From the NCBI GenBank assembly GCA_021817125.1, contig JAKAWC010000002.1:3589-67588 (forward strand): a stretch of DNA of 64,000 nt, given 5' to 3'. Of this stretch, positions 8,426-39,900 are shown one piece after another. Position 1 is the first letter of the stretch. The number at the start of each line of letters is the position of its first letter. Origin of the DNA: Candidatus Micrarchaeota archaeon (lineage in GTDB: Archaea > Micrarchaeota > Micrarchaeia > Micrarchaeales > CABMGC01). The notes beneath the pieces are model-generated. The model saw only the letters and a program-made list of their open reading frames with translations. It had not been told where the DNA came from and made no database searches. Both the position numbers and the translations under genes were made by a program.

Positions 8426-9214
8426 TCATCTGTCCTTGCATATTATGGCGATGAATCGACCGTCCTCTTTGTAATGCTTAGAGTCAATGAATCTCTTCAC
8501 ATTCCAACCTGTACCTGCTAGTATCTCCTTTACTTCCCTCTTTGATGCAAAGAGGGCATCGAACCAGTCGGTCGCATACTGCATGAACCTTACTCTCTCC
8601 CTGAGCTGGCCAGGCATCCTGCCGCGCTTTAGGTTCCTCTTGTGATATGCAAAATGCACCAGATTGTCGGTTATATATGGATCCCTACTCTCCGCTATCA
8701 AGTTGCAGTCATCTGAGGTGATCATTTCCAGATCCTTTAGAAAGTCCCTTGCCTGAGTCTTACTGCCCAGAAGAGCAAACCCCTTCCCTCACAGCAAAAC
8801 AGTGCTGAAAGGACCTTTTAGATCTCGTATCCTCTTGTGGCTAAGAACTCTCGCGCTTTTCACCCCCCTCAGCTTGCACACCTTTATTGCCATCGGAGAC
8901 TCATCTATTCCTAGGCTGTCAAATCCTTTTGATTGGAGGTAAAGCTCTGCCCTGCCTGCACCACAGCCGACATCCAGACACCTGTCTTTTGCATATTTGA
9001 TTGCTTCCCTCTCGTGCACGTCCCAGTCTTTGTAGCTCAAGAAGTAATCTTTTGCAGTCGGGGAAATGTTCACAAACCCATCATCCCTCTCAAAAACAAG
9101 AAAGCTCGGCTTGCCATTGTAGTAATTTAGATATGCGTGACCCCAGGCATCCTTTATATCGTTCAAATATCTCACCAAAAATGCAGTTCTGTTAACATTC
9201 TTACTATTGTACAC
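8426..9214 (-). pseudogene. class I SAM-dependent methyltransferase interrupted by one in-frame TGA (8789-8791)
   Basis: ORFs 8789..9214 and 8426..8725 are in the same frame. I translated the 63-nt gap, and the whole reads ...STVLL*GKGFALLGSKTQARDFLKDLEMITSDD.... Motif I, LDVGCGAGR, lies in the N-terminal part. The start is GTG at 9214. Confidence 0.7.
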
Positions 9215-9254
9215 ATATATAACCTTTTTAAATACCTACTGCGATGAGTAGGAT

Positions 9255-9365
9255 GTGTCGGATATGGGGAATATTACTGCAGTGTCTGCATGAGAGAATA
9301 CTATTGAGGTGTGTGATATGGGAGGCTACTATTAAGAGTGTTATTATGGGTCCATACTATTAAGG
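9255..9365. repeat. four contiguous degenerate ~27-29-bp direct repeats, consensus GTGT-N3-(A/C)ATGRG-N4-5-TACTATTRAG
   Basis: Copies at 9255-9281, 9282-9308, 9309-9337 and 9338-9365, read directly. They lie between the methyltransferase start (9214) and the stop of the Lrp-like gene (9407). Confidence 0.7.
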
Positions 9366-9406
9366 CAGACTAACAGCATCTTGCCCTTCGGCGACACTAT
9401 TTTTCA

Positions 9407-22244: not shown

Positions 22245-22315
22245 GGGGGTATCGTCTAGTGGTAGGACGACAGATTGACATTCTGTAAGCAGGAGTTCGA
22301 TTCTCCTTACCCCCA
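22245..22315 (+). tRNA. tRNA-Val (anticodon GAC)
   Basis: Folded by hand. Acceptor GGGGGTA/TACCCCC with discriminator A. Anticodon arm ACAGA-TTGACAT-TCTGT. T-arm AGGAG-TTCGATT-CTCCT. 4-nt variable loop. The ends are accurate to +/-1-2 nt. Confidence 0.85.
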
Positions 22316-22637: not shown

Positions 22638-22907
22638 TCAATAACGCTTCTGCGGGGCAAGCTCAACGCGCCTTGCCTCGTTGTGCGGCGCCTCGCGGGC
22701 TGTGCTAAGTCTGGAAAGGGGAAGCCGGAGCGTTCCGGAATGCTCTGTCTTTACGACAGCGCTCTTCGTGCTCAAGGACACCCCCAAGACCCTGCCACGC
22801 TTCGCCTCCTTCGTGCCACTGTCTATCGCTACCTCGTCGCCGACCTTGAACGGAAGCGGAGCTGACTCAAAGAGCGCCTGGTTAATCTGGCGGTGTTGGT
22901 ATGGCAT
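22638..22907 (-). CDS. hypothetical 89-aa protein with a KOW/SH3-like segment
   Basis: FKVGDEVAIDSGTKEAKRGRVLGV resembles a KOW-type beta-hairpin. It lies directly downstream of tRNA-Ala on the same strand. Confidence 0.35.
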   Translation of the reverse strand: MPYQHRQINQALFESAPLPFKVGDEVAIDSGTKEAKRGRVLGVSLSTKSAVVKTEHSGTLRLPLSRLSTAREAPHNEARRVELAPQKRY

Positions 22908-22988
22908 AGCATCACTAGATGAGACATCTTCTTCTTCCCTTAGCTATACTTTGTGGATGGCTAATGCACGCCACGCGATAGGGGTGAG

Positions 22989-23060
22989 TGGACTCGGCGG
23001 GGATCGCACCCGCGACCTTCCGCTTGCAAAGCGGACGCTCTACTACTGAGCCACGAGCCC
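22989..23060 (-). tRNA. tRNA-Ala (anticodon UGC)
   Basis: The reverse complement reads GGGCTCG...TCCGC-TTTGCAA-GCGGA...GCGGG-TGCGATC-CCCGC-CGAGTCC-A. It includes the G3:U70 pair, the alanine identity element. Confidence 0.9.
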
Positions 23061-23195
23061 AAGGTGTAGGATTATCCCCAACAATGCCTATTAAGTTTTC
23101 TGTTGGTGTTTGTTGTAAGCCCGTATAACGGGGCTGCCCGAACGCTTTAAATACTCTTCTAAAGTATTGTAAGTGCTTCTGACAACGGTGATACT

Positions 23196-23303
23196 ATGGC
23201 AAAGAAACCATCAAATGAAGACGAAGAAGACGATGACTTGGACGACGATGAAGAGATGGACGAAGAGGAAGACACGGAAGAAGACTTCGATGACGAGGAA
23301 TAA
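23196..23303 (+). CDS. 35-aa poly-acidic micro-protein
   Basis: Hand translation: MAKKPSNEDEEDDDLDDDEEMDEEEDTEEDFDDEE, with 24 of 35 residues D/E. A TATA-like ctttaaatac lies ~50 nt upstream and a T-rich tract follows directly after the TAA. Confidence 0.35.
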   Translation: MAKKPSNEDEEDDDLDDDEEMDEEEDTEEDFDDEE

Positions 23304-23357: not shown

Positions 23358-25979
23358 CTACTTCTTGCTCTTAGGCTTAGCCTTGCCCTTCGCGCTCCCC
23401 TGCGTCTCTTCGTGCACCTTCTCGTCGTTCTCGCTGCCGGCCGCCTCCTCCTTCTCGGGAGTTTCGCCGTCTCGGTGCTCCGTAGGCGCGCCTTCCGCCT
23501 CGTTATCCCGTGCGACCCTAGCGTGGACCTCTCCCTGGCCCCTGATGACGTGCGGTCCCTCTCCGGTGCCCGTCCTTGGGTTCATGATGTTCGGCGTATT
23601 CGCTTCCGGACCTGTGCCCGTGTACTCATAACGCTTGCCCATGGTCTTGTTAAAGTCCGCGTCCGCCTTGGCCCCCAGTTCGATGCCCTTCTGCTTGAGC
23701 ATGCCGCCTCCAATTATACCCACTTTGTCCGCGGCATGACCGACTCCGATGGCTAAGTCCGCGGCAATCGTCTTAAAGACAGGTATGCTCATGCTGCCTG
23801 ACCTCCCTAGCTCCTCCCTCAGGTCCTCGGTTCCCTGGCCGGCGATTGCTTTCGCCGCCGCGGTAGCATATCTTATAGGGCTGCTTATGCCATAAGCGCT
23901 GTCGTGCAGCTTGCCGAAATCCTTGTTGAACTGCTTCTCTATCGCTGCCTGTTCCTTCTGTGCGGTCTTCAGGTCTTTCTCCAGCTGGCTCCTGTATGTC
24001 GCCGCTTCCGCAGTGGTCATATCTCTGACTCCCTTCGTGCCCAGGTCTCCGACCTGCGGCACAGTGCCCTCGCCAAGCTGTCTGAGCGAATCCTTAATCT
24101 GGGTCTCCCTGTCGTAAGCCGACTTCAGTCTCGTAGTCGTATCCTGCGTGAGCAGCTCGAATCTCTTCGCTATCTCGTCAAGATGTTTCTTCCTTTCCTC
24201 GAGAATATTCCTATCGGACTGCTGCCCTGCCTGTACATATGGGCTTACCTTCTCTGCCTGTTCCCTCTCTTTTGGCGCAGCCTTCGCCTCCTTACTGTAA
24301 TCATTCGCAAGCTGTTTGACGTTTTCTGCGCTCTTGGCTCTGGTGCGCTCCTTTCTTAGTTCTTTCGAAGCGCTTGCGACGGACGAAGTGCCATCGACAA
24401 TCTCCTGTGCGCGCTTTGCCGCCTCTCCCTTAAGACCCATGGAGGTGATTACGTCCTTCATATTCTTCCGGCCTGCTATAACATCCTCGGCAAGCGTCTT
24501 CGCCGTGCCAGTCAGTCCAGTGCTGCTTCCTAGTGTCTTTGCGGTACGGATCGCTTCCACATCCCTAAGGTCCTTCACGCTGCCGCCTACCCTGTCCTCA
24601 ACTCTCTTCGTGGCTTCATCCAGCTTCTGCTTAGCCTTGGCTACTGGTTCTAGCATACCTGGTCTCGTAAGGCTGTCTTTTAACTCATCGCTGGGCCTTG
24701 CAACCCGCTTCCCGCCAGGTTTCGAGGACTTGTTCTTATCGCCCGCTGTCACGTTCGTGACGCCCTCTGTCTCTATTCTCTTCCCCTGCCCTTCACGCAC
24801 CGGCCTGGTCGCCGGACCCGCGCTTCCCAGTAGTATATCGAGCCTCTTCCTCTCAGCCTCGAGCCTCAGTCCCGGTGTTCCGCTAATCGGCGACCCGCCT
24901 GCCACCTGTGAGTAGCCGATGACTTTGGTCCTTCTCCCGAAGACAGTCTTTTGTGTAACATCATGCACCGCGAACGTCTTGCCTTGCGCATCTTTAATCT
25001 CACGCGGCGCCCTCCTCTTCGCCTGGTTGGTCTGGTATCCTGCCCTCGCCTCCGCTCTGGCCTGTGCCCCTCCCTGATAACCCTTGAATGCGACCAATCC
25101 GGGGACAGCTAACATAAGTGCTGACCTAGGGCCGTACTTGATTCCGGCTTTGGCCCCCTTGATCGCCAGAGGTATCGGCGCAAAAGCCACCCTCTTGGCT
25201 ACGGTGCTTGCCCTGTTGGCTATCCGCCCGCGAAGCGTTCCCTGATCGAACCTTGTCACCGGAGTTGTCTTGTGCTCGGCCACCCTGTCGATTGCCACTC
25301 CGGCCCTGCTTCCCGCTCTCCCCACGGCCAGGCGTGCATTCCTCATCTTGACCCTCGCGTTCTGGAGGTTGAATGCGACCGCCCTGGTAGACCTTTTGAA
25401 TCCGCCGCCTGCACGGCTTGCCGATGGCAGGTTGCCAACGGGTGACCCCTTCCTCAGCTGCGTCGAGGTGACCTTGCCTACAGGGGCGAGCCCGCCGAAC
25501 TTGCCTCCGGGGGCTGCTCTAGGCGCCGGGATAGGCCTGCCCCTCATGCCGACACCTGTGCCGGCAGATCCGAGTACACCGGCAGGCCTCCCTGCCGCTC
25601 CCCTGATCCTCGACCATAAGACGTTCCTCTCCGCTCCCCTTCCGGCCTTTATGAGGCTCCTTCTCGGTGACAGCGACCTGAGCCCCCCTGACCTTGCCAG
25701 CTTTACGCCAGCGGCTATCTGCCCACCCGTCCTGGACAGCTGGAACGGTCCTGCCGTAGCTATCTTCCCGACGTTCTTCTTTGCGAGCGATCCCCTTCCG
25801 GCAGCGCTGCCGAACCCGGCAAGAGTGGCTATGCCGAACAGGTTGAAAAGGCTGTAGCCCCGCATCGATCCCGCGGCCGCGGCTACAAGGATGAAGATTA
25901 TGATGAGAGGGATGAGCGCGTCTATTGCTCCCAGTGAGAGAAGAATCGCAACGAGTGTAACTCCCACTATCAAAGGCAT
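23358..25979 (-). CDS. 873-aa membrane-anchored, hyper-basic, low-complexity/coiled-coil protein of unknown function
   Basis: The N-terminal ~60 aa form 2-3 TM helices. About 330 aa rich in R/G/A/K follow (e.g. RGAAGRPAGVLGSAGTGVGMRGRPIPAPRAAPGGKFGG). Next come K/E/A-rich coiled-coil-like segments, and the protein ends in a charged tail (...KGKAKPKSKK). No enzymatic motif was recognised. Confidence 0.7.
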   Translation of the reverse strand: MPLIVGVTLVAILLSLGAIDALIPLIIIFILVAAAAGSMRGYSLFNLFGIATLAGFGSAAGRGSLAKKNVGKIATAGPFQLSRTGGQIAAGVKLARSGGLRSLSPRRSLIKAGRGAERNVLWSRIRGAAGRPAGVLGSAGTGVGMRGRPIPAPRAAPGGKFGGLAPVGKVTSTQLRKGSPVGNLPSASRAGGGFKRSTRAVAFNLQNARVKMRNARLAVGRAGSRAGVAIDRVAEHKTTPVTRFDQGTLRGRIANRASTVAKRVAFAPIPLAIKGAKAGIKYGPRSALMLAVPGLVAFKGYQGGAQARAEARAGYQTNQAKRRAPREIKDAQGKTFAVHDVTQKTVFGRRTKVIGYSQVAGGSPISGTPGLRLEAERKRLDILLGSAGPATRPVREGQGKRIETEGVTNVTAGDKNKSSKPGGKRVARPSDELKDSLTRPGMLEPVAKAKQKLDEATKRVEDRVGGSVKDLRDVEAIRTAKTLGSSTGLTGTAKTLAEDVIAGRKNMKDVITSMGLKGEAAKRAQEIVDGTSSVASASKELRKERTRAKSAENVKQLANDYSKEAKAAPKEREQAEKVSPYVQAGQQSDRNILEERKKHLDEIAKRFELLTQDTTTRLKSAYDRETQIKDSLRQLGEGTVPQVGDLGTKGVRDMTTAEAATYRSQLEKDLKTAQKEQAAIEKQFNKDFGKLHDSAYGISSPIRYATAAAKAIAGQGTEDLREELGRSGSMSIPVFKTIAADLAIGVGHAADKVGIIGGGMLKQKGIELGAKADADFNKTMGKRYEYTGTGPEANTPNIMNPRTGTGEGPHVIRGQGEVHARVARDNEAEGAPTEHRDGETPEKEEAAGSENDEKVHEETQGSAKGKAKPKSKK

Positions 25980-26090
25980 CTATATCGCCCCCTATTCCTA
26001 ATTAAAGATATGGCGTTCCACCTATAAATAGGTATGCATGAATACGTCGAGCTATAGAGGTCAATCCGGAAAGAGGCTATAAATAAGGCA

Positions 26091-29000
26091 TTAATGTGTC
26101 CTATGTGCCCTGCGTCTCTTCCTTCCTGCAGTGAACAGCAGCACCGCAGCGACAGCGGCTATCGCCGCAAGCCCTGCCGCGTCTATGTTTCCGTATCCAA
26201 GTTCGAGCAGGCCTATAGGCGTGCTCAGCGTCGACATGTTGGGTGACCAGGTGTAGTTGACCGCTATGAACTTGTCCGACGCGCCGGAATAGAACGGGTC
26301 TGCCGCGTCGACAAGCGGCGCCTGGCTGACGAGTATCGGCTGCGGAGAGGGCGATCCGTAGTATTCCGCGGTTATCAACGCGGTCCCTATGCCGCATGCG
26401 ACTACGTTCGTGGAGAAGACGCCGTCACTGCTCGTCTTGGCTATGCCTATCAGTCCAATCTGCGGCGTGCATATCCCCGTGCCGTTGCTGTACAGCGGCT
26501 CGCAGAACCAGTTCACCGAGCCTCCGGCCGTGGGGAAGCCCTGCGTGGGCACGCTGCCCGAATTGGGTTGGAACGCCTGCGTGTTGCATTCTGCCCAGAG
26601 CCCGTCGACCGCCTTAGTGACGCCGTAGATATTGCAGTCAGCCGTGGTCGGGCTGAAGAGGCTTTTCGGCGGCGCCATGCAGGTGTCCGGTGTCGCGCCC
26701 GAGTTGAAGAGCGAGTTGTATGCGGTGTTATACTCCACAACGGCGTTATTCGGCTGGAGGTTGCCGGCGTATCCCGGATAACCCCGCCAGACCGGGTTGG
26801 ACTTCGTGCAGTTGACCGGTATGGAGCAGCTCTTGTCTGCCGCACATGCACTCGGGCTTCCGCCGAAAGCGCAGAACTGCGCGTTGGTTATGTTCGCCGG
26901 TATCGGCTGCGCGACGAAGTTCATATCGGTGCCATAGTAAAGGTAGACGTCCCCGTTCGGGAGCGGCGAGAACTTGGTTCCGAAGTCAGACTTGTAGCCC
27001 ACTGTCCCGTCTATGTGGACTGTCGTCTGGTTGGCATTGCTCTCCTGGACGGACGGCTGGACAGTGAGCTGGATCGACGTTATGTTCGCGAGATCCGCGT
27101 CGAGCGGTGCGTATATGGTGTTGTTGAACCTGTCGTTGAATACATATACGAGCCTCTGGTAGCCTAGGGTGTTGGACGTACCTGTGAAGCCGTGGTTGGC
27201 GGGGTTTGCAGTGTTGTACTGGTCCCCGTTGATGAACATGTCCAGGGGGCTGTTGTATATCGTCTCCTTATAGAGGTCGAAGAGGCTGACAAATCCCGGA
27301 AACAGCGCCTGCCATGTCTGCTGGTCTGTCGCGCTTATCTGCCCGTCCCCTATCCCGTTGTTGGCTATAGACGAGGGATATGTCTGGACCACCTGGGCGC
27401 TTACCGATGGGTAAAGGAACAGGTTTGGGTTTCCTGACATGCTCATGCCCGAGATGTTGTAGAAGTTCATTGCCCCTTCAGGTATGGGCACGCCTGCCGT
27501 AGCCGACGTGATCGAGTACACGAGCGAGGTCGGCGCACCGGGCTGCGCATACGCAAGAGGCCCGTTCGAGTACGTCTCCACAGTGTTGCCCGTGACCGTG
27601 AGCACGAGCGGATCGCTCGGCGAGATCCAGGCTGTGTCTCCCTGGAGTATGACATTGACCGTGCCCTGCGCCATCTCGTCTATGGCGCGCTGCGACGGCA
27701 GGAATGTTGTGGACAGGTAGAGCGACGTGAATGCGCTCTCGAAGCCGTTGCCGTTCGGCTGCACTATATACGGTCCAGGTATGGCGCTCGGCGCAATGGT
27801 CTGTGGGAGTATGGGATTCGAGTTGATGTTCTCATAGCCGGGGTTCGCCCCCTGCTTGTATGTGTTGACCTGGTACGTGAACAGCTTTGTGGCGTTGATT
27901 ATGTTCTGCAGGTTCGTCGACGCGCCTGCCGTAAGATTGACATATGCCTCCCCGAGCAACCTGTCGTTCTGTAGGTTGAGCGCTATCTGCGGAGGTATTA
28001 TCGTGCCGAGGTCGGAGATGTTTGCGATGTAGTAGTTAGGCGTGCCGGAGTACTGCAGGTACGTGTCCCCTCCCTCTATTATCGAGGTGAGCCAGTTCGA
28101 GGCGCCGTTCACAATCTGGGAGGTGTAGACCGTCGTAGGCCCGACCTGCTGCAGGTTTGGTGCGGAGCAACTTCCAGGCGAGGACCTGAGGTTGCTCGCA
28201 GTCTGCGTTATCCTGTAGGTGTAGGAGTACGGAATCACTGCGTACCCGCTGACCCTGGCGGAGAGTGTCTCCGGTTGGCCAATGAGGCTTGGCACCGACG
28301 GCGTGGTTATGCCTGTGGCGTTGCTGTAGATTATGTTCGCTATGCCGTTGTATCCTCCGTTGGCGTTCTGTACGCATCCCGTGGAGTTGGTCACGTTGAT
28401 GTCCTGGCACGATGCGTTGACCGAGAAGCTACCGCCTCCAGGATAGCTGGATGAGAAGTATCCCGCAGCCGTGAGCAGCTGTGGGCTGCCCAGGTTCTCT
28501 GCATAAGTGAACGGATCGGATACCGTATAAGCTGGTCCCTCCATGTTGTCCACGGTGGAGAGGTAGTTGCAGGTGGACAACGGGTCTGCGCCTGATGCGG
28601 GGTTGCCGTTGCCCGGCAACGCGTAGGCGCCTGCAGAAGTGTAGCACTGGTACTGCGGAAGGCCGCCGAACTGCTTCGTGTAGTTCTCCAGGGCGTACTT
28701 CGTTATCGCGAAAGTGTCCCACAGGTTGGCGTTCTGCTGTATCTGGTAGCTCCATGTGTCGCTGGAGCCCGGATAGTTGATTATGGGCAGCGATGGGACG
28801 TTCGGCATGAGTATGTCTATGGAGCCGTTGAAGCTGACGCCAAGCGAGACCCCGAAGTAGAGCGGCGTGTAGCCCGCTGCTCCAAGTCCGGCTCCGAACC
28901 AGGCGCCGTTGTTGCATGTGCCCTGCGTTGCTCCTGAAGGATTTGTATTGACCCACGGACCGAGAGCCTGTATCGTTGGCCCGATCGGATAGAATGCCCC

Positions 29001-32000
29001 CGTGTACTTGGCTGCTCCGTTTGTGAGGTCCGCCTTGTCGAGGCATGTGGTCGAGCTTCCGGAGCAGAAGTTTATCGATGAGTAATCGCCCCCTGTCCAG
29101 CCGTTGCCGCTGCTGTCGGTGTAGGGTCCGCAGCTCGTGCCGCACCCCCGGAAGTTGCCTATCTCGCCGTAAGGCGGGTTGTTGGCAGAGCAGCTCGGGT
29201 TGAAGTTGGTCAGCCCCCAGCCCCGCGTGGTCTCAAGCTGGTAGATTCCATCTCCGGGCAAGCAGCCGAAGCCAAGGTTTCCTGCGGCGTTGTTGCCGCT
29301 GCATATTATCGTCACGTTCGCAGCCAGGGGCCAGCCGTACGGCGGGTATACCCCGCCGGGTGTCGGCGAATTTGTGCCTATATCATCGTAGCCCGTAGGG
29401 TTTATCTGCAGGTCTGTGCCGTTCGAGGTGAGCGCCCTGAGCTCGAGTGCGCTGAACCAGACTCCCTGCGTATAAGTGGCTTGCCCTCCTGCGCCCCCGC
29501 CCTGGCTGGGGTCCTGTACGTTGAAGTCGCTTGGCGCCCAGTTGTCGAGAACGTAGAGGTAGCCATTCACATCCGTCAGGCCCAGGGGGTGGTGGTAGCC
29601 TGGGGTGTCCTGCCATAATGTCGTCGATATGCCAGAGCCCTGCAGCGCGCTGACTATGTCGAGGCCAAAGTGATAGAGCCCGCTGTTTTGGAGATACGAT
29701 GTGATGTTTACCGGCGGCGCGACCGAGCTGCTGTATCCGGCAATCTGCTGGCGGTAGGTCAGGTCCACGCTGCCGCCAGAAGTGAGGTTCTTGCCGAACA
29801 TGGTGTAAATAAATCCGGTCTGCGCGCTGGACAGGTAGTCCGTCTGGTTGGCCAGGAAGACAAGGGAGCCGTCCGGAGACGACGTTATCTCCGTGGTGAC
29901 AGGCATGTTGAAGCTTGTGCTTGTGGTGTTCGACCAGAGCCACGTGGTGTTCGCTGCTAGCGTAGGGTTGCCGCTTATCGTGTTGGACACCTTCACCACT
30001 CCGGGGAACGTCTCGGTGGTGCAGCTGGACGGGTTCACGCCCTGCACCGCTCCGGTTATGAAGACGTCTCCGCTGTTGTCCGCAGTTATGTTGAGCGGCG
30101 TAAATGCCGGGGAGTTCGGCGACGTCTGACTGTTCCCCTGCTGGTTCGTGACGCTCCCGCCGCATGCCACCTGCATCATGTGGTTCGCGTGGTTGTAGAG
30201 CGTGTTCTCATAGCTCGCCATCACCCCCTGCGCCCCGGAACCGCTGTTCCCCGGGCCGAGGAGGATGGACCTGGCGACGTAGACCTCCTGGTCTTGCAGA
30301 TTTATCAGGTTGTTGAAGTAACTCTGCCAGTTGCCGTTCCACTGCGCCTGGGAGGTGCAGGATGTGCCGCTGCAGATCGTGCCAGGCTGGTAGCCTGAGG
30401 CGTTGTACTGTCCATGGGGGACGACGCGGAGTATGGTTAGGTAGTAGTAGTTGCCGCCGCTCATGTTGAGGACGAAGATGTAGTCGTTTGATATGGCCGC
30501 GACAGATATCGGGCCTGGGATGTTGGGGTTTACCCAGCCAGGCGTGCCTGCGTTGTTGCCCAGTATGGAGCCAGGGTCCTGCGGCCCGTTGTTGTGGCTG
30601 CATCCCCCGTTGCTGTCTGGCAGGCAGTAGAAAGGCGCGCCCTCGAGCGAGCCCAGGTCGGCGCTCTGCAGCGAGTTGTTGACGTTGACGAAGAGCTTGC
30701 TCGGAAGGTCTATCGGGTACGGGTCTATCGACTGCGAAGGTGTATTGTAGTTCCACGGGCCGAAGAGGTCGTAAGAGTTGTTGAGCGATGCACCGTAAGG
30801 CCCTGGCAGCGAGTAGTTGAGCGTGAAGTATGGTAGGATGTTGGCGTCGAACGTGTTGAACTTGTTGCCCTGCCCGTCGACCACTTCGTTGAATGGTATG
30901 TAACTGTTGTCGACTCCGCTAACCATCGTATTTATGGTGTCGGCGAAAGTGTACGAGCAGCTTGAGGTCGGGTCCGTATACGATACTACGGGTATGTACG
31001 CCTGGGAAGGCACTGTCTGCCGCAGGTCCGCGAACTCCGCGCTCCATGACCATATATCGTGTTGCGCTATCGACGGTATGCCGAAGAAGATGTAGCTCTG
31101 GGTGTGGAAGTTGTTGGCTATCTCGCCGTCAACGCTCGGCGTGAAGGAGATCTCGTTGATCGTGAGCGCGCCGATGTTGCTTATCCCAAAGCTGGGCAGC
31201 GAGACCTGGGGGGAGCTCACTCCATTCCATGATACCTCTGTCTGGTAGTGAATCTGGGAGTCGAGGCTAGACACAGACGACATGCACTGGTCCCCTGCAG
31301 CGTAGGTCGGGGTGGCAGCTCCCGGGTATATATCCGACTGGTCTCTCGGATTCATCACAGGCGCATTCGGCGCAGTGAGGAACCAAGGTGCGTTGGCTAT
31401 GTTGTTATTGTTCACCTGCTCTGCGGGAGAATATGCGTAGCCCGGCGTCGAGCCAGTATATGTGAGCTGGCACCCTGCAGGGTTGTAGCTTGTCACCGTG
31501 CCGAGTCCTGTGTCGAAGATGCACACCGTGGTGCCGCCTATGGAGTTGCATGGCAGCGCCTCTGTCTGATAGTTAACGATGAAGTTGGCCGTGGCGCCAG
31601 AGGACCAGCCGCCCGGAAAGTCTGTCGTCAGCGTGCCGCTGGACAGGCAGCTGCCGCCGGTGCAGCTGAATACAGGGGACTCCTGGTAAAGTTCGTTTAT
31701 CGTGTAAGTGTAGTACGGGGCAGGGACCGACTGGAAAAACATTGGGCTATTGTATGCGAACTGGACGTTCTCGTCGTTCGCCACGAGGAATGTTGCCTGA
31801 CCGCTAGCCACCTGAGAGGCGGTCCACGTCTGGTTATGCGAGCCGACCGTGACCGTGAGCATATTTGCGTTTGCAAGGTTTGAATTGAGCGAGTTGGCTC
31901 CGTTATCGACCACATAGCCGAACTGGAGCGGGTAGATGCCCAGCGCAGTCTCTTGCACCTGCCCGTTTGCGCCACCAGACCCGCCAGGGCAGTTGTAGGT

Positions 32001-33104
32001 GTTGCTGCTGCAGCTGCATCCGCCAAGGCCGAGGTTGCATGTGGTGTAGGTGCCGCTTCCGGCGTAGACGCCCCCTCCAGAGGAATGCGCCCAGCCAGGG
32101 TTTGAGCCTATGCTGTTGAGCACCGCCGACGTCGCGGTGATGGATATTACTCCTCCTCCCCCGCCTCCGCCGTCAACGCAGCCGATAGGAGCCTCGGAGC
32201 CGCAAAGGCTCGTGGACCCGTGGTGCCAGAATGTGCCCTCCCCGCCGCTGCCTCCGATTGCAGCGATATATCCGCCAGGGGCGCCGTTGAACACGGCGTT
32301 TCTAGGATTTGGCGTCACCACCGTTATGTTTATACTTCCTCCTCCGCCTCCGCCTCCGGCAGCCGCGCCGTTGCATCCTGTGGTCGCCCCCTGGCCATCG
32401 TTGCCGTTCGCGGTTATCGGCCCGTTGTTGTAAAAGTTAAGCGCAGTGATGGATACCGCCCCTCCTCCAGCCCCGCCCCCGCATGAGAGCGAGAAGCTTG
32501 GACAGACCGTTCCCGAAGAACTCGCATAGCCCGCGCCTCCGCCTCCGGAGTATGCACCGCCGCCCATGGAGCCTGTCGATATGCAGAAGCCTGAACCTAT
32601 ACCAGATCCACCCCCGCCGCATCCGCTGTTTCCGCCCCAGCTGCACGTAAGGTCGCTTCCCGAGAACCCGCCATTGTTATTGTTGCCCGCCTGCCCGCCG
32701 CCTATCTCCACGTTGGGTCCGTTGCCTCCGTTCCCTCCGTTGCCGCTGCCCGCTCCGCCGCTGCCGCTTCCGCCCTCCCAGCCCCCGGTCCCGGTCGCGG
32801 ATATAGTGCCGCCGTTGGTGAACGTGTCAAGCGCGGTCATCGAGTAACAGTTGCTGTCCTTTCCTGCGCATGTGTAGACCGTGTAGCCCGAAGGTATGTT
32901 TATGTCGTCGTAACAGATGCTGCTCGAGAGCGTATACGAAGCGCTGGGCGGGGTCCAGGTGCCCGGCGTGTATGTCACGCCGCTCGGGCACGATACCACA
33001 GGAAATGTCATCGGGTTCTGATGGATGATTGTGGCCGATGCTGATGCGATAGAACACAGACAGAGGACTCCGAGAGCGAGAAGGATAGTTTGTAGCCTCT
33101 GCAT
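26091..33104 (-). CDS. 2,337-aa secreted giant surface protein (adhesin or S-layer-associated) with a Gly/Cys-rich N-terminal module and a C-terminal TM anchor
   Basis: Signal peptide MQRLQTILLALGVLCLCSIASASA. Residues ~100-380 carry poly-Gly runs with the repeat GGGGGG(S/V)I.IT. The long S/T/N/G/Y-rich body has very many N-x-S/T sequons. The C-terminus is AAGLAAIAAVAAVLLFTAGRKRRRAHRTH. A TATA-like tatataaata lies 48-57 nt upstream. Confidence 0.85.
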   Translation of the reverse strand: MQRLQTILLALGVLCLCSIASASATIIHQNPMTFPVVSCPSGVTYTPGTWTPPSASYTLSSSICYDDINIPSGYTVYTCAGKDSNCYSMTALDTFTNGGTISATGTGGWEGGSGSGGAGSGNGGNGGNGPNVEIGGGQAGNNNNGGFSGSDLTCSWGGNSGCGGGGSGIGSGFCISTGSMGGGAYSGGGGAGYASSSGTVCPSFSLSCGGGAGGGAVSITALNFYNNGPITANGNDGQGATTGCNGAAAGGGGGGGSINITVVTPNPRNAVFNGAPGGYIAAIGGSGGEGTFWHHGSTSLCGSEAPIGCVDGGGGGGGVISITATSAVLNSIGSNPGWAHSSGGGVYAGSGTYTTCNLGLGGCSCSSNTYNCPGGSGGANGQVQETALGIYPLQFGYVVDNGANSLNSNLANANMLTVTVGSHNQTWTASQVASGQATFLVANDENVQFAYNSPMFFQSVPAPYYTYTINELYQESPVFSCTGGSCLSSGTLTTDFPGGWSSGATANFIVNYQTEALPCNSIGGTTVCIFDTGLGTVTSYNPAGCQLTYTGSTPGYAYSPAEQVNNNNIANAPWFLTAPNAPVMNPRDQSDIYPGAATPTYAAGDQCMSSVSSLDSQIHYQTEVSWNGVSSPQVSLPSFGISNIGALTINEISFTPSVDGEIANNFHTQSYIFFGIPSIAQHDIWSWSAEFADLRQTVPSQAYIPVVSYTDPTSSCSYTFADTINTMVSGVDNSYIPFNEVVDGQGNKFNTFDANILPYFTLNYSLPGPYGASLNNSYDLFGPWNYNTPSQSIDPYPIDLPSKLFVNVNNSLQSADLGSLEGAPFYCLPDSNGGCSHNNGPQDPGSILGNNAGTPGWVNPNIPGPISVAAISNDYIFVLNMSGGNYYYLTILRVVPHGQYNASGYQPGTICSGTSCTSQAQWNGNWQSYFNNLINLQDQEVYVARSILLGPGNSGSGAQGVMASYENTLYNHANHMMQVACGGSVTNQQGNSQTSPNSPAFTPLNITADNSGDVFITGAVQGVNPSSCTTETFPGVVKVSNTISGNPTLAANTTWLWSNTTSTSFNMPVTTEITSSPDGSLVFLANQTDYLSSAQTGFIYTMFGKNLTSGGSVDLTYRQQIAGYSSSVAPPVNITSYLQNSGLYHFGLDIVSALQGSGISTTLWQDTPGYHHPLGLTDVNGYLYVLDNWAPSDFNVQDPSQGGGAGGQATYTQGVWFSALELRALTSNGTDLQINPTGYDDIGTNSPTPGGVYPPYGWPLAANVTIICSGNNAAGNLGFGCLPGDGIYQLETTRGWGLTNFNPSCSANNPPYGEIGNFRGCGTSCGPYTDSSGNGWTGGDYSSINFCSGSSTTCLDKADLTNGAAKYTGAFYPIGPTIQALGPWVNTNPSGATQGTCNNGAWFGAGLGAAGYTPLYFGVSLGVSFNGSIDILMPNVPSLPIINYPGSSDTWSYQIQQNANLWDTFAITKYALENYTKQFGGLPQYQCYTSAGAYALPGNGNPASGADPLSTCNYLSTVDNMEGPAYTVSDPFTYAENLGSPQLLTAAGYFSSSYPGGGSFSVNASCQDINVTNSTGCVQNANGGYNGIANIIYSNATGITTPSVPSLIGQPETLSARVSGYAVIPYSYTYRITQTASNLRSSPGSCSAPNLQQVGPTTVYTSQIVNGASNWLTSIIEGGDTYLQYSGTPNYYIANISDLGTIIPPQIALNLQNDRLLGEAYVNLTAGASTNLQNIINATKLFTYQVNTYKQGANPGYENINSNPILPQTIAPSAIPGPYIVQPNGNGFESAFTSLYLSTTFLPSQRAIDEMAQGTVNVILQGDTAWISPSDPLVLTVTGNTVETYSNGPLAYAQPGAPTSLVYSITSATAGVPIPEGAMNFYNISGMSMSGNPNLFLYPSVSAQVVQTYPSSIANNGIGDGQISATDQQTWQALFPGFVSLFDLYKETIYNSPLDMFINGDQYNTANPANHGFTGTSNTLGYQRLVYVFNDRFNNTIYAPLDADLANITSIQLTVQPSVQESNANQTTVHIDGTVGYKSDFGTKFSPLPNGDVYLYYGTDMNFVAQPIPANITNAQFCAFGGSPSACAADKSCSIPVNCTKSNPVWRGYPGYAGNLQPNNAVVEYNTAYNSLFNSGATPDTCMAPPKSLFSPTTADCNIYGVTKAVDGLWAECNTQAFQPNSGSVPTQGFPTAGGSVNWFCEPLYSNGTGICTPQIGLIGIAKTSSDGVFSTNVVACGIGTALITAEYYGSPSPQPILVSQAPLVDAADPFYSGASDKFIAVNYTWSPNMSTLSTPIGLLELGYGNIDAAGLAAIAAVAAVLLFTAGRKRRRAHRTH

Positions 33105-33920: not shown

Positions 33921-36278
33921 TTAGTGCGTAGCGTTGTAGTTGATCTGGAATATCTTCGAGTCCCTGTTCGAGTAGACCAGGCGTGCGGTGGCGTTCCTGT
34001 TGTTCCATATGCAGTTGTAATTGTTGCAGAAGAAGATGAACTTCAGCATGTTGCTGTTGTACAAGCCAGGAGTGAAGAGGTACGCCTCGGTTACGTTCAC
34101 CGGAAGCTGCGGGTTCGGCACGCCAGAGTACACTACCAGGAGCATATCTCCGTTGGTCTGGTTGAAAGTGGTCTGCTGCACGACGGAGTAGTTAGAGTTG
34201 TCGGTATCATAGAACGCCACGTACTTGAAAGGGCTTATCCCGTTCTGCGCTATCCCGTAGGCGGATATCTTCTTCGTGCCGTTGACGTTCGTTATCGTGA
34301 GCCTTGCCGCGAGGCCGTTCGGGTTTTGGAACTGGAAGCGCTCTGTCGTCGAGTTGTAGTTGAAACCGACCTGCGGGAACGGTGCGTACGAGTAGTTGAG
34401 CTGCTCCTGGAGCGGCGTCAGGCTCCAATTCGCCTCGATGAGTATGCCCGACGTCTCGAGAAGCCAGTTGTTCCTCACAAGGAGGTACTGCGGGCTTCCA
34501 GTCAGGTTCGAGGTCAGGTAGGCAGGGTCTGGTGACGCGTTGTAGAGCCAGCGCGCGAAGAGCAGCGCCTTCTGCGCGTTCTGCGCGCCGACGCTGTCCA
34601 TCACGCTGGTCCTGTTCGCTACTCCCTCCACGACGCTGCCGTCGGGCCAGAGCGTGAGCACCGTGGCGTTTGCGTGGGTGTTTGCCTGCAGCGTTGCTAG
34701 CGCCACGAAGAGGTATGGGTTTACGTTGTCTGCCTGTACGAGGGTGAATGTGTAGCCATAGTCTATGAACAGGATGTAAGCGAGGAATGCTATCAGTATG
34801 CCGAACGCCACGAACCTGACCGGCACGTTCACGACCGGCAGGCGCGCGTCCTTCAACATGAGTATCACCCAGTATATAGTGTATGCCGACATTATGGCGA
34901 GCGGCACAGCGAGCAGCGAGTTGAACCTTATGGCGTTTATCTGCAGGAACGAAGTCACAACTATATAAGCTATGACGATGAGCATTGTCTCGTCGGCGTC
35001 GAACCTGAAGCGCGCGTTGCCGCCCATGAATCCTGTCCCGCTGTCATAGGTCTTCATGAAGAGGTATATCCCAGACACCATGATTATAAGGAGCCAGAAG
35101 AGGTACTTGAACCCGCTCACATATGTCGAGAGGGCGATAAGGAGGCTCATGGGTGTGGTGAACAGTGTCACCCCGAAGGATGCAAAGAGAAAGCCGAACG
35201 AAGGGGGCTGCAGCTCCTGGATCGTCGACGAGAAACTATTCGTTATTATAAAGCCGTTGGCCACGAAAACGTCGTAGATGAAACCGGGGGCGATGATGTA
35301 GAGTGCGATGCTGGCCACAGCCACCCCCGCCACGAGTACTCCCAGCCTATATGCTGCTGTAGGCATTCTCAGGATAGTGGGTAGCACTTTAGCAGCGTAC
35401 CATCCGACAAGCATGAACACGAGTATGATCCCGAAGTCAAGGCCGGTGAAGACCTGCGGGTACATAAAACCGAGGAGGATGTATGCGTTGACCAGGATGT
35501 ACCAGACCGCGAGCGCGGCCAGCATGTATTTTCCTTCGTCGACAAGGTTCTTGTTGTCGAGGACGAACCCGAATCCGACTATGAATATGAAGGCGAGCGC
35601 GTATACCGCGACAGCGAAAGCGCCTCCTGAGAATGTGAGATCACAGAGGCTCAGGAGGAAGCCCGACGCCACCGCAAGCGCAACCTTCCTGCTCTGGGGC
35701 TTCTCCCTGAAGGCCATAAGTATGATGATGAGTGCGCCGAGAAGGAACGCCGGGGCGAATCCGTCTCCCCTATACACCCCTCCGCTGGTCCTGGCAGCGT
35801 CGCCCATGCTGAGCGCGAGAAGTGCCATGACCAGGAGTCCGAACATGCGGTCCTTGCTAATCCCGCGGGAGAGATAGTATGCGCCTATAACGTCGAGGAT
35901 GCCGAAGAGTATCGGCACAAGACGCATCACATCATAGTAGCTTATTCCAGCGAACCGCAGGAAGAAGTACGGGATCAGCGTGACCCAGTAGAGCCCGAAA
36001 GGCTCGGTCACCAGCGCGTGCTGTGGCCAGCCAGATATGTTGAGTATATGCGGTATGGAGAAGCCCTGATTGACTGCCTGCCTTATGACCGAGAAGTGAT
36101 AGAAGCCGTCGGGCTCGTAGAAGCCGTAGTACTTCAGGATGGGCACCCTGAAGTATATGGTCAGTGCTATGATAACGATAGTGAGAAGGATGAATATCGC
36201 CCCATATGGCAGCCCCTTCTTCACGCCCGAAGTAGTTGCAGCAACTTGCTCGCTCAATGCATCACAATCAGTAAACAT
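33921..36278 (-). CDS. aglB: archaeal oligosaccharyltransferase AglB (STT3 family) with a divergent WWDYG motif
   Basis: A 13-TM-like N-terminal region with YEPDGFYHF in the first loop (DxD-type), TIQE (the TIxE motif of loop EL5), and LWPDGS at aa 543-548 in place of WWDYG, followed by a soluble C-terminal domain. Confidence 0.8.
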   Translation of the reverse strand: MFTDCDALSEQVAATTSGVKKGLPYGAIFILLTIVIIALTIYFRVPILKYYGFYEPDGFYHFSVIRQAVNQGFSIPHILNISGWPQHALVTEPFGLYWVTLIPYFFLRFAGISYYDVMRLVPILFGILDVIGAYYLSRGISKDRMFGLLVMALLALSMGDAARTSGGVYRGDGFAPAFLLGALIIILMAFREKPQSRKVALAVASGFLLSLCDLTFSGGAFAVAVYALAFIFIVGFGFVLDNKNLVDEGKYMLAALAVWYILVNAYILLGFMYPQVFTGLDFGIILVFMLVGWYAAKVLPTILRMPTAAYRLGVLVAGVAVASIALYIIAPGFIYDVFVANGFIITNSFSSTIQELQPPSFGFLFASFGVTLFTTPMSLLIALSTYVSGFKYLFWLLIIMVSGIYLFMKTYDSGTGFMGGNARFRFDADETMLIVIAYIVVTSFLQINAIRFNSLLAVPLAIMSAYTIYWVILMLKDARLPVVNVPVRFVAFGILIAFLAYILFIDYGYTFTLVQADNVNPYLFVALATLQANTHANATVLTLWPDGSVVEGVANRTSVMDSVGAQNAQKALLFARWLYNASPDPAYLTSNLTGSPQYLLVRNNWLLETSGILIEANWSLTPLQEQLNYSYAPFPQVGFNYNSTTERFQFQNPNGLAARLTITNVNGTKKISAYGIAQNGISPFKYVAFYDTDNSNYSVVQQTTFNQTNGDMLLVVYSGVPNPQLPVNVTEAYLFTPGLYNSNMLKFIFFCNNYNCIWNNRNATARLVYSNRDSKIFQINYNATH

Positions 36279-36953: not shown

Positions 36954-39900
36954 ATGAAAAGTCTAAACGCAAAAAGGATAGCTGCCCTTGCAGCTAGTTT
37001 GGTAATGGGTCTTGCATTCGCAGGACCTGTAGTGGCGACCGCATCGGGAGTGACGATCGGTAACGGGTTCTCAGTGATAAATAGCGCTGGAACTCCAACA
37101 GTCCAGATAGTTGTGGGATCTCAGGCACAACCTAGCGACGGCGTAGTTGCGGCAAACATTGCTGCAGTTATCGGCAACCTCGCATATGTGTCCTCAAAGA
37201 TAACCGCAACGGTCAACGGACTGGGAGCGGTAACGTGCGCAGTCACGACCCCAACATGCACGCTGTCAAACCAGCAGGTATGGCTTGGAGTAAAGGGACT
37301 CAGCGCGCCAACAGGATCTTATGCAATTAAGACCTTGATAGGCTCGGTGATGAACGGCGGAGTACTTAACTATAATACATTATCTAACACCAAGGCCGTG
37401 ATATCTGGTTCAAGCCAGTACACGTACCCAGAGGGAAACTCTCCGTACCCTGTGACCTCATCGCCTGAGATGACCTCGGCGTTCGCAGGAATAGGCTCGA
37501 TATCCATACCTGGCCCTGTATCTGCAACGACGAACGGAGGCGGCTTCACAGGAAAGGCGTTCACGCAGAGCGGCTTCGACAACGTAGTCGAGCTCTCGAC
37601 AACGCAGATCCCAAGCCTGCTCTCTGCATCGGGCCAATACTCAGAGTCTGAGTACCTATGGCTTATGGGCTTCCCAGTCTATAACCAGCAGACGAACGTC
37701 AGCAACTTCCAGCTGCTCGACGGAAACGGCGCATACCAGGTCGTCTTCGGAAAGCCGATCTCGATCTTCACCTCAGCTGCAAACGCTGCGGCGAAGGCGT
37801 ACAACCACGCCGGCTTCAGGTTGCTAGGGACGAACTGGACCATCTACAACGTAACGCTGCCTAATGTGAATGCACCATCAAGCGGCAACTTCGTGGTAGG
37901 AACGACTTCGAGCGAAGGAACACTGCAGCTCGCACAGTCGCAGGTGCCATTGACCCTGCTCTACGTAGGACAGAACATGACCGCAGGCCCTCTTACAATC
38001 GCACTGCAGGACTTGACATACCCTAACCAGTCTGGAGCATCCAAGGCTGTCATAGGAGTATACAAGAACGGTGTTCTGACCAACGAGTCGACAATCTCGC
38101 CTCTTGGCACGGCAACGATCAACGCGTCTGGCACGACCGCATACATCTATGTGTCCGCGACAACGCCTGGTCTGTACGCCAGCCAGAGATGGGCAAAGAT
38201 CCAGGTCTTCAGCAACATCTTCAACGTGACGAACGGGCAGAAGTTCGGAAGCTCGAACCCTAACTGGCTGACATCGATAAGATGGTCAACGAACCAGTCG
38301 ACAGGAGTATCGGGAACGCTTTCCGGCACTGAGGCGACGAACGCAGTCCTCGAGGGCATAGTAATATATAGCAACCTCTCGAAGGCATACTCGCTGACAC
38401 CAGGTCAGTCATTGGGCTTCATACAGAACCCACTGGCGTTCAACCTGACGTTCTCTGGTGACGCACTCGGCACGCCAAGCGCAACGAACTCGAACTTCGA
38501 CGCACAGACGTTCTCGTCAACAACCGCAACAGGAGGGTCGGACTACACGTACGGCAACCCTAACGGCGACACGACAGCGAACCCTGGAGCTCAGACGTTC
38601 TCCACAGGCCTGATAGCATCTGTCTCGGCAGCTGCAAACGCGGTCAACGCGACGGTGGTAACCGAGCCCGTGAACCTGTTCACAGTGCAGAGCTCGCTGC
38701 CTACGGCGTTCCAGATAACTTCGCACACTGGAATCTTCCCATCGCCAAGCACGAATCAGCAGAAGGTCCTATACAACCTCGACGGCTATTCGTATGTGCC
38801 AAACAACGTATTGGACGGCCCTGGATCGGCAAACATACTAACGTATGCGCCTAACAACTACGGTGTCGTGTTGCAGATACACAACAACGGAGTGGACGGG
38901 AACTACGTCACGAACAACAACCAGTTGACGGTCTCGATAAGCGGCTCAAAGTGGACCTCAGGCCAGGGAACCGCATCGGTATCGGGATTCGGATTCAACC
39001 CGACCAACTCGATTGGGACAGCCACAATTCCGGTAAACGTGATACAGCAAGGCATGCTGATGAAGAACGTGACCAACGTGAACGTCGGCTACCCTCTTCC
39101 AGCACCTGGTGTAACAGTATACGTCTACGACACCGCGAACGTCTTCGCGTTCAACGCGACAAGCGGTGCAAACTCGATACTGATGGGAACACTGTCGTAC
39201 TATGGCCCAACGCTGTTGTACTCCGTACCTCAGTACAACTACTGGCAGGCGCCTAACGCGCTGACAGCGAACGTTGTATACACCGAGTCTGGCTACACGC
39301 AGGCATACACCCTCAAGAGTGGCTCAACCACGCCGGGCGTGGCGAGAGAGCAGTACTGGTCGTATGTGATCCCAGAGATCGCTGTACCTCAGACCGGCAC
39401 CACAGACGCGAACATGACTATCGGATTGACGAACCAGTCAACCTCGAACGTCGGCTCAACGCCTGAGTACTGGCTGAACCAGACCAGCGGCAACAACAAC
39501 AAGCTGATCTACACCTCGTACCAGGGAACTGCAACGCAGGCTGTACAGGGCTTCAGGACAGAGCGTGGATCTGGCGTCGGCCCAATAACGTCGACATCAG
39601 TGACATACTACCTGGCTCAGTCCATCGACACCCTGAACTTCCTGGTCGGACCTGCAAAGCAGGGCTCGCTGGCGACGACACAGACCGTCGGACCGTTCAA
39701 GATCGGACAGACATACAACAACATAACGATCGAGAACGTGAGCGCAACATGCGCGTTCGCAGCAACAAGCTGCAAGGTCTCCGGCCTGACGAACGTCACG
39801 GCAACGCCAAGCGCGACTACGGCGATAACTGCAGTGCCATTGAACACTGCGGCAACGCCTATAGCCGTACTGGACTCGAATGCAAGCTCGACGCAGAACC

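Follow-up and report, generated by a model that had tools for sequence, protein, structure and literature searches.

A gene for an undescribed, Micrarchaeota-specific membrane protein was characterized computationally in a 64,000-nucleotide (nt) stretch of DNA from a Candidatus Micrarchaeota archaeon (contig JAKAWC010000002.1 of assembly GCA_021817125.1, positions 3,589 to 67,588), which will be referred to as the window. The encoded protein of 873 amino acids (aa), the target, combines a conserved N-terminal membrane module with a long polycationic tail, which most likely lies in the cytoplasm and appears to be selected for its charge rather than for its sequence. Its gene faces that of a hyper-acidic microprotein, and relatives elsewhere are found within a membrane cluster containing an ATPase of the HerA/VirB4 class. 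The best explanation we can offer, which has slightly less than an even chance of being correct, is that the target provides an envelope machine of Micrarchaeota with a polycationic scaffold on the cytoplasmic side and would bind a polyanion there. The positions of all major features are listed in Table 1.

The target gene and its family

An earlier interpretation made from the letters alone (the sequence-only reading) had described the open reading frame (ORF) as coding for a hyper-basic, largely low-complexity protein anchored in the membrane. The ORF is present on the reverse strand at the length given there, and its translation contains both peptides quoted in that reading as well as the terminal KGKAKPKSKK. 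The hyper-basic composition was borne out by the computed isoelectric point (pI) and charge profile: the protein has an overall pI of 10.3 and contains 117 Ala, 107 Gly, 75 Lys and 74 Arg residues. Residues 61-400 carry a net charge of +53 (pI 12), residues 401-790 are of mixed charge (net +12), and the final ~85 residues comprise an acidic stretch followed by the basic terminus.

The target ORF is a genuine gene of an undescribed family and no chance ORF, since the identical protein recurs on independently assembled contigs of several samples, the G+C content at third codon positions (GC3) is 0.67 and thus raised as in the neighbouring genes, and 210 homologous clusters were retrieved. The high G+C content at second codon positions is due to the G/A/R-rich composition. 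Hence neither the lack of homologues nor the non-coding character that the sequence-only reading had named as possible objections was found. One might still consider a spurious or decaying ORF, that is, a low-complexity translation of GC-rich DNA, given the composition, the tail without sequence conservation and one relative in which the gene lies in two ORFs. However, the 2.6-kb ORF is uninterrupted, each of the 210 clusters has kept both the conserved module and a basic tail, and there is conservation of the promoter box as well as of synteny over 28 loci, so that this view is effectively refuted by the family-wide conservation. The CTATTTATA(T) promoter box recurs 5′ of most orthologues of type B (defined below). 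Tandem repeats were not detected by Tandem Repeats Finder (TRF) in the target gene or its basic block. The window itself represents archaeal chromosome, encoding GGGP synthase, TruD, aRF1, tRNase Z, NFACT and a protein with a Methanococcales-type surface-layer (S-layer) domain.

An exhaustive phmmer search of 1.84 billion representatives yielded the 210 representative clusters at E ≤ 1e-3, all of them matching solely query residues ~8-75; the family thus comprises at least 210 representative clusters. Searching a 5.8-billion-protein database with a profile of the module returned short fragments only, and a metagenome scan added just two further loci. All source-named members are annotated as 'hypothetical protein' and derive from metagenome-assembled genomes (MAGs) of Candidatus Micrarchaeota, Micrarchaeia or Micrarchaeaceae, which belong to the DPANN archaea; judging from every source-named member, the family is restricted to Micrarchaeota. 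The statement of the sequence-only reading that no family could be assigned still holds. None of the profiles of Pfam-A, NCBIfam, PHROGs and PADLOC matched the target, and phmmer against the sequences of the PDB found no relative (best E = 0.84). The module profile gave chance matches to antibody CDR3/J segments in the PDB (E > 0.1), and Foldseek comparison of the AlphaFold2 (AF2) model with the PDB returned insignificant, generic helical matches (best E = 0.16, TM-score ≤ 0.12 on the query). No family member was found on the viral contigs of IMG/VR when a virus or plasmid origin was checked, and literature searches did not turn up an account of the family, of the microprotein or of the ATPase cluster.

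The conserved membrane module

Residues 1-75 are the sole part of the protein that can be aligned throughout the family. In order, the module comprises a transmembrane (TM) helix, in which a polar residue (N/D20) and P24 are conserved, the motif AAAG and a hinge of the form R40-G41-(Y/F)-S, then a second helix, short and hydrophobic (FNLFGIATLAG), and finally the Gly-rich G(K/R)GS. Its consensus reads L-S-x-G-A-(I/V)-(N/D)-A-L-I-P-(hydrophobic)-A-A-A-G-x-x-R-G-(Y/F)-S-x-F-N-x-F-G-I-x-T-L-x-G, then G(K/R)GS. In the form of the motif that was tested, L-S-x-G-A-(I/V)-(N/D)-x-L-I-P ... A-A-A-G-x-x-R-G-(Y/F)-S-x-F-N-x-F-G-I, the residue after (N/D) is left variable. The window protein conforms to the family motif with the sequence LSLGAIDALIPLIIIFILVAAAAGSMRGYSLFNLFGIATLAG. 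Among 30 diverse members, which are ≤50% identical overall, mean column identity of the module is 58%, and the modules of the two genomic contexts described below are almost indistinguishable.

The sequence-only reading had proposed several N-terminal TM helices. The membrane anchor stands, not so the plural: AF2, based on a 19-sequence alignment, predicted one confident TM helix (residues 2-39, predicted local distance difference test (pLDDT) ~80-90) and a short second hydrophobic helix (residues 44-60), the short helices ending at residue 60. Beyond what had been noticed before, the anchor is a strongly conserved membrane module and not a generic anchor. At one type-B locus (L024, 10001-11465) the family gene is in two pieces, a 108-aa membrane module (P0053) and, in another frame, a 367-aa basic ORF (pI 9.9, net +28); this split is either natural or due to a frameshift or assembly error.

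A tail conserved in charge

Past the module, sequence similarity ends. Residues 76-873 of the target showed similarity to none of the 179 other family members despite the tiny search space, at a divergence that leaves TruD with 46% identity and the adjacent giant protein with 25-40%. Nevertheless, the tails were net-positive in all 151 members examined (pI 9-12), in answer to the question raised by the sequence-only reading whether orthologues keep both the anchor and the basic block. The charge follows a family-wide gradient with +0.18 per residue in the first 50 residues past the module, where acidic residues account for just 5%, decaying to 0 by ~500 residues; the background, taken from the remaining proteins encoded at these loci, has a mean of 0.002 ± 0.025 per residue. 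As the tails are unalignable yet all net-positive with a common gradient, we conclude that the tail is under selection for charge rather than sequence and is evolving very fast. It represents a natural example of a region selected for its charge pattern alone, unalignable where housekeeping proteins are 42-52% identical (window versus the Micrarchaeota-type MAG locus L011).

In the target, the architecture of anchor, large polycationic domain and helical region proposed before was confirmed. From residue ~58 to ~430 the AF2 model is of very low confidence (pLDDT ~30) with few weak helices, for which reason the basic block is most likely intrinsically disordered. Its positive charges are evenly dispersed. 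Shuffle tests showed no enrichment of RG/GR, RGG, KG/GK or spaced K/R patterns in the window protein (z −1.5 to +0.4), with family means of ~0. The pattern [ST]P[KR][KR] was observed once against 0.1 expected (z 3.65), a single match that does not amount to enrichment, and SPKK-type motifs were likewise not enriched across the family (family means ~0). The following K/E/A/T-rich region had been called coiled-coil-like. Long helices were indeed predicted at ~440-783, locally with pLDDT >90, and the label is accordingly refined to helical. This domain has no sequence similarity to other family members. The possibility that the helical domain of long members is a fused copy of a ~525-aa cytoplasmic neighbour (fam17) of short members was considered and rejected. 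The C-terminal tail (784-873) is probably disordered as well, to judge from the model.

Family proteins are 300-980 aa long, with tails of ~250 to ~900 residues, and the far end of the tail can apparently bear protein-recruiting domains: above the Pfam cut-off, J-domains were found at the C-termini of two relatives (P0028, residues 591-640; P0034, residues 504-550) and LRV repeats at those of two others (P0004 and P0087). Pfam detected no J-domain (PF00226) in the window protein. In about 31% of the members the tail includes an extra hydrophobic stretch, located ~150-250 residues after the N-terminus (mean z = 0.5), and 66% of these segments have a central Pro compared to 28% expected. Since just this fraction has such a segment, it is real in a subset only, where it may form a membrane-dipping hairpin. 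The target's own segment, RSALMLAVPGLVAFKGY, lies at residues ~285-301 (window ~25080-25130), its central Pro form being ALMLAVPGLVAF.

These features bear on a function as lipid-binding membrane skeleton, in which the juxtamembrane polycation and amphipathic helices would lie on the anionic head groups of the archaeal lipids and shape or stiffen the membrane, either beneath the S-layer or where the host is contacted, without involvement of nucleic acid. The peak of charge in the first 50-100 residues after the membrane with its near exclusion of acidic residues, the often Pro-kinked segment in about a third of the members, which could dip into the membrane, and the proximity of S-layer and glycoprotein genes within one envelope gene island are in line with it. 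Weak Foldseek matches include BAR and F-BAR proteins. These matches are not significant, however, the hydrophobic segment is not universal, and a lipid skeleton has no obvious need for a dedicated microprotein or J-domain fusions. We consider this explanation improbable.

Topology of the tail

The target is most likely a bitopic protein with N-out/C-in orientation and a cytoplasmic tail. This is argued by the positive-inside rule, by the low density of N-glycosylation sequons (0.34 per 100 aa) together with the absence of Cys, features in which it differs from the adjacent surface proteins (1.4-4.3 sequons per 100 aa, numerous Cys), and by the J-domain and LRV fusions of relatives. In addition, the second hydrophobic helix, with merely ~11-15 residues, is too short for a membrane span. 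The cytoplasmic domain of the sequence-only reading is thereby supported.

In the reverse arrangement, the second helix would span the membrane and the tail would be an extracellular polycation, serving as adhesin on the anionic membrane of a wall-less host. Micrarchaeota do attach to wall-less Thermoplasmatales hosts (PMC5498576, PMC8975820), a second hydrophobic stretch is present, and a giant surface protein is encoded next door. Nevertheless, this appears very improbable: apart from the shortness of the helix, a +53 domain outside would break the positive-inside rule, sequon density and lack of Cys are cytoplasm-like and unlike those of all neighbouring surface proteins, the J-domains of relatives act on cytoplasmic Hsp70, and the acidic partner has no signal peptide.

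Two genomic contexts of the family

Redundant copies apart, 28 loci were classified into 13 of type A, 13 of type B and two (L005 and L006) of undetermined class, as their upstream sequence is not covered. These contexts tie the family genomically to an ATPase membrane cluster and to a giant surface protein, neither of which had been part of the sequence-only reading. At type-A loci the family gene is embedded in a co-directional cluster of ~20 kb (e.g., L001 1-19758), which encodes in order a 7-TM protein, a 6-TM protein, six ~400-aa polytopic paralogues (the "six-pack"), the family protein, two ~275-aa 2-TM proteins, an ATPase of ~500 aa, small proteins, a LamG-like protein, a ~245-aa protein and a ~800-aa surface protein; the topoisomerase VI-B gene usually flanks the cluster. 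Three arrangements of family gene and six-pack were seen at these loci, all of them within the cluster. The six paralogues have the motif R-x-(F/L)-P-(F/W)-x-R-x-x-G-G in common.

With DUF87, TraG P-loop and AAA_10 domains, the ATPase is assigned to the HerA/VirB4 clade, HerA and VirB4 being the most similar proteins of known structure. It is unusually conserved across the phylum, with more than 1,000 homologues, the best 120 of which are 69-87% identical (L001's own copy aside). The membrane parts of the cluster have no Pfam or PDB relative, and profile searches of the PDB gave no match of the six-pack and 2-TM proteins to VirB6- or VirB8-like proteins. With PADLOC, the target and its membrane neighbours remained without a match, the ATPase alone matching generic HerA/DndH models. 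Also encoded in the cluster is a Zn-ribbon 2-TM protein. The protein of ~240-245 aa listed above (L001 16385-17146; L030 12262-12981; 239 aa in L033-L042) gives weak matches to CdvB_HTH, ZapB and the EAP30/Vps36 winged helix, which are hints of a link to cell division or membrane remodelling.

At type-B loci, including the window, the family gene is located directly downstream of a co-oriented gene for a giant surface protein. These proteins of 1,674-2,337 aa are secreted, sequon-rich, C-terminally TM-anchored and homologous to the window's own giant protein, with about 25-41% identity in the 12 other loci. A gene for a ~525-aa cytoplasmic protein sometimes lies between the two, and in L019 and L024 giant and family genes overlap according to the ORF calls. 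As the target usually has its own promoter, the coupling of both genes represents conserved adjacency and no proven operon.

ATPase/six-pack clusters without the family gene were found in Micrarchaeaceae (L030 and L031 with 10-kb flanks; L033-L042 with 4-kb flanks). The family motif was absent from these clusters in any frame, and the first 2-TM gene follows the six-pack after 35-57 nt. Two MAGs contain such a target-less cluster and, on a separate contig, a giant → target ← microprotein locus (L038 and L043 in GCA_038878195.1; L041 and L044 in GCA_038877415.1). The simplest reading is that each genome has one family gene, located either in the ATPase cluster or relocated beside the giant gene together with the microprotein. 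The partial genomes suggest that the ATPase system persists in both genome types.

A hyper-acidic microprotein

A second finding that goes beyond the sequence-only reading is the microprotein gene, whose product is a candidate polyanionic ligand of the tail. All 15 loci of type B or undetermined class have an equivalent ORF of 30-45 aa at a distance of 70-300 nt past the family gene, and none of the 13 type-A loci has one; further acidic ORFs of this kind were not present in the scanned sequence (window and L001-L023). The orthologues typically begin with MAKKK or MPGKK, consist of ~70% D/E and have conserved aromatic positions. Their nucleotide substitutions fall mostly on codon position 3 (1157 compared to 218 and 166 at the other two), and D/E swaps account for 484 of 770 amino-acid differences. 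In all 11 copies compared, a consensus or near-consensus TATA box (TTTAAATA) is located 40-55 nt upstream of the ORF and a GGTGA-type Shine-Dalgarno sequence 4-8 nt before the ATG, and most have a T-rich terminator. From the coding-type substitutions, the conserved signals and the fact that the public gene caller likewise predicts it, we conclude that the gene is real and probably well expressed. A signal peptide was not detected in the microprotein.

Proposed function and comparison with known systems

The most likely role of the module, as we propose, is to dock the protein to one particular envelope complex or to promote its oligomerisation: it combines small-residue motifs with a buried N/D and a Pro kink, as is typical where helices pack against each other in a specific manner. 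Along the inner membrane face, the tail would then provide an electrostatic scaffold or tether, with the charge densest by the membrane and lineage-specific additions placed distally, such as the helical domain here and the J-domains or LRV repeats in relatives. The envelope machine would comprise the six polytopic paralogues, the two 2-TM proteins, the HerA/VirB4-class ATPase and LamG-like or giant surface proteins, and the tail would bind a polyanion there. The most specific candidate for a ligand or regulator is the microprotein, which could be a charge-neutralising chaperone or a competitor for nucleic-acid or lipid binding. In a bolder version, which we regard as rather unlikely, tail and microprotein would be a dedicated, co-evolving polyelectrolyte pair, a membrane-anchored archaeal counterpart of histone H1/prothymosin-α, forming a switchable electrostatic latch on the cytoplasmic side of a Micrarchaeota-specific HerA/VirB4-ATPase machine through which, together with the giant protein, nucleic acid or protein would be exchanged with the host cell.

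Several points weigh against the scaffold proposal. All functional steps derive from gene neighbourhood and composition, no nucleic-acid-binding motif is enriched in the window protein or the family, and the tail combines low AF2 confidence with the lack of a fold match. The microprotein gene is convergent with the target gene and not co-transcribed with it, and as it is absent from type-A genomes, the microprotein is no obligatory partner of the family. The 64-kb window contains no ATPase cluster, tblastn with the cluster proteins finding the N-terminal module alone. Moreover, the single copy per genome rests on two MAGs and partial contigs, and the target usually has a promoter box of its own.

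Known pairs of polycation and polyanion are histone H1/prothymosin-α, protamine/nucleoplasmin and the D/E-rich DNA mimics. The low-complexity polycation (+53) and the D/E-rich polyanion of 35 aa resemble these pairs, but here they are conserved archaeal gene neighbours, the polycation is membrane-anchored, and a physical interaction is suggested by conserved adjacency alone. The enrichment of S/TPKK, AKP or RGG/RG that marks histone H1/Hc1-like proteins or RGG-type intrinsically disordered regions is not found in the target.

A membrane anchor with a long, strongly basic cytosolic region is also known from two ribosome receptors of the eukaryotic ER, p180/RRBP1 and ERj1, and from Oxa1/YidC with their basic C-tails, which act near the translocation of large proteins, p180 having a coiled coil in addition. 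By analogy, the target could be a membrane receptor for ribosomes or mRNA, whose basic tail would bind rRNA or mRNA and keep translation next to the membrane, so that the giant protein or the six-pack could be exported or inserted co-translationally; the J-domain relatives would bring Hsp70 to the same site. The order of N-terminal TM, basic region and coiled coil in p180 is matched by the layout of the target, in architecture only. The neighbours are always demanding Sec substrates, namely a secreted protein of 1,700-2,300 aa or six polytopic proteins, and the even dispersion of charge fits non-specific RNA binding, as the J-domain fusions fit the recruitment of Hsp70. On the other hand, the tandem basic decapeptide repeats of p180 are not present in the target (TRF), searches with Pfam, PDB and Foldseek found it homologous to none of the ribosome receptors, and p180, ERj1 and Oxa1 contain nothing that corresponds to the conserved membrane module of this archaeal protein. 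Microprotein and HerA-class ATPase are also left without a role. We consider a ribosome receptor unlikely.

The D/E-rich microprotein resembles known DNA-mimic proteins, and it could gate the tail in this manner if the target were the nucleic-acid receptor of a translocating machine. The cluster would then be a pump similar to Ced/Ted, type IV secretion systems (T4SS) or FtsK, engaged in uptake from the host or in chromosome handling, and the tail would capture the polyanion on the cytoplasmic side as it enters or leaves. Such a pump is suggested by the DUF87/TraG/AAA_10 ATPase being nearest to HerA and VirB4, by its exceptional conservation and by the embedding of the family gene in the ATPase cluster at 13 loci; the combination of a type-A ATPase of this class with polytopic, 2-TM and surface proteins is reminiscent of Ced/Ted and VirB4-driven T4SS. 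However, profile searches (Pfam and solved structures) detected no VirB2, VirB3, VirB6, VirB8 or CedA-like component, neither SPKK nor another DNA-binding motif is enriched, and the ATPase clade by itself does not define the substrate. The ATPase adjacent to the family gene in type-A relatives has no equivalent in the window. The family protein itself cannot be a pilin because of its 300-980 aa with a large cytoplasmic tail: unlike a pilin or VirB3 subunit, a two-helix hairpin of less than ~150 aa, the target has 873 aa with a tail of ~800 aa, and it lacks profile similarity to VirB2, VirB3 and CedA1. Altogether, a nucleic-acid pump seems quite unlikely to us, although it gains from giant surface proteins of Nanohaloarchaeota that are fused to VirB4/TraG-like ATPases (PMC10266531).

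These Nanohaloarchaeota proteins represent the closest thematic parallel. They are giant membrane-anchored surface proteins of the 'SPEARE' type, fused or adjacent to VirB4/TraG-like ATPases, for which a role in host interaction has been proposed (PMC10266531). In both cases, a giant surface protein of a DPANN episymbiont is genetically tied to a HerA/VirB4-class ATPase. In Micrarchaeota, however, the link goes via the target family, whose genes neighbour the ATPase cluster or else the giant-protein gene, whereas the nanohaloarchaeal ATPase domain is fused to the giant protein, and no polycationic bitopic protein, six-pack or microprotein has been described there. A sequence relationship to the proteins of this study was not found.

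Further resemblances concern single features. As in DjlA-type J-proteins, two relatives (P0028 and P0034) end in a J-domain, which the window protein does not have. The layout of TatA and TatB is likewise similar: an N-out TM helix containing a polar residue is connected by a Gly hinge to an interfacial helix, and a charged, perhaps unstructured tail follows. However, PF02416 (MttA_Hcf106) gave no match at E ≤ 0.1, and the resemblance is architectural only. Because at least one defining feature was tested for and not found in each case, p180/ERj1, DjlA, TatA/B and H1/prothymosin serve as analogies for a mechanism and not as memberships. There was also no indication of an anti-phage defence component, neither a HerA paired with a known defence effector nor a PADLOC match of the target being detected.

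Micrarchaeota and other DPANN archaea need physical contact with their hosts, yet hardly anything is known of the molecules that establish it, and the label 'hypothetical' applies to the majority of their conserved genes. Against this background, three linked, phylum-specific components appear amenable to testing: the family of module and charge-selected tail, the microprotein with its strong expression signals, and the ATPase cluster with the giant surface proteins. Through its genomic neighbourhood, the family is tied to an uncharacterised system that has the appearance of a core envelope machine of this phylum. The genetic pairing of a tail that appears to be selected for charge only with an oppositely charged partner is of interest for the study of disordered proteins and polyelectrolyte complexes. 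As cultured systems exist with 'Ca. Micrarchaeum harzensis' and 'Ca. Mancarchaeum acidiphilum', the predictions are testable.

Other features of the window

Table 1: Positions of the target gene, its domains and associated features in the window, and loci assigned to the two genomic contexts.
Feature	Position or loci	Strand	Remarks
Target ORF	23358..25979	(-)	ATG start, 873 aa; bitopic membrane protein (predicted) with polycationic cytoplasmic tail; member of Micrarchaeota-specific family
Conserved N-terminal membrane module	25755..25979	(-)	residues 1-75
Polycationic low-complexity block	24690..25799	(-)	residues ~61-430; from charge profile and AF2
Helical mixed-charge domain	23631..24662	(-)	residues ~440-783; lineage-specific; long helices in AF2, pLDDT up to 95
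C-terminal tail	23361..23630	(-)	residues 784-873; acidic then basic; low AF2 confidence
TATA-like box TATTTATA	26023..26030	(-)	44-51 nt upstream of target ATG
Giant surface protein gene	26091..33104	(-)	2337 aa, Cys-rich; signal-like N-terminus, C-terminal TM anchor; conserved upstream neighbour of type-B genes
Microprotein gene	23196..23303	(+)	35 aa, 69% D/E, MAKKPSNEDEEDDDLDDDEEMDEEEDTEEDFDDEE; convergent with target, 54 nt between stop codons
Microprotein expression signals	23146..23192	(+)	TATA box TTTAAATA 23146-23153; Shine-Dalgarno GGTGAT 23187-23192; T-rich terminator past stop
Type-A loci (n = 13)	L001, 2, 7, 8, 9, 12, 13, 15, 20, 21, 26, 27, 28		family gene inside ATPase cluster
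Type-B loci (n = 13)	window, L003, 4, 10, 11, 14, 16, 18, 19, 24, 32, 43, 44		family gene directly downstream of co-oriented giant surface-protein gene

The giant surface protein of the window contains 33 N-glycosylation sequons and 54 Cys, a Gly-rich region near its N-terminus and the sequence RKRRRAHRTH after the TM anchor; no Pfam family matched it. Further upstream, 33921-36278 (-) encodes a 785-aa protein with ~12 TM helices, homologues of which also occur near type-A clusters (42% identity in L020). It is unrelated to the 7-TM protein at the edge of these clusters. An assignment as GT-C/STT3-like glycosyltransferase, considered because of an 'EPDGFYH' motif, was unsupported, as Pfam, NCBIfam and PDB gave no match. 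The 1052-aa product of 36954-40112 (+) carries S_layer_C and S_layer_MJ domains and is probably an S-layer protein. It is followed by a gene for a 681-aa protein (40380-42425 (+)) with 4.3 sequons per 100 aa and C-terminal TM segments; together with the target region, both genes form an envelope gene island.

On the other side of the target, tRNA-Val (22245-22315 (+)) and tRNA-Ala (22988-23060 (-)), the latter at a distance of 135 nt from the microprotein gene, flank an 89-aa ORF (22638-22907 (-)) with weak KOW-like matches (NusG/L24). No sign of an integrated element was seen near these tRNA genes. Finally, the G+C content of 8001-10813 is 0.46 compared to 0.52-0.60 elsewhere in the window, and the 468-aa helix-turn-helix (AsnC-type) ORF within it (9407-10813) has a GC3 of 0.49 compared to 0.66-0.81 in other genes; this region may be foreign DNA.

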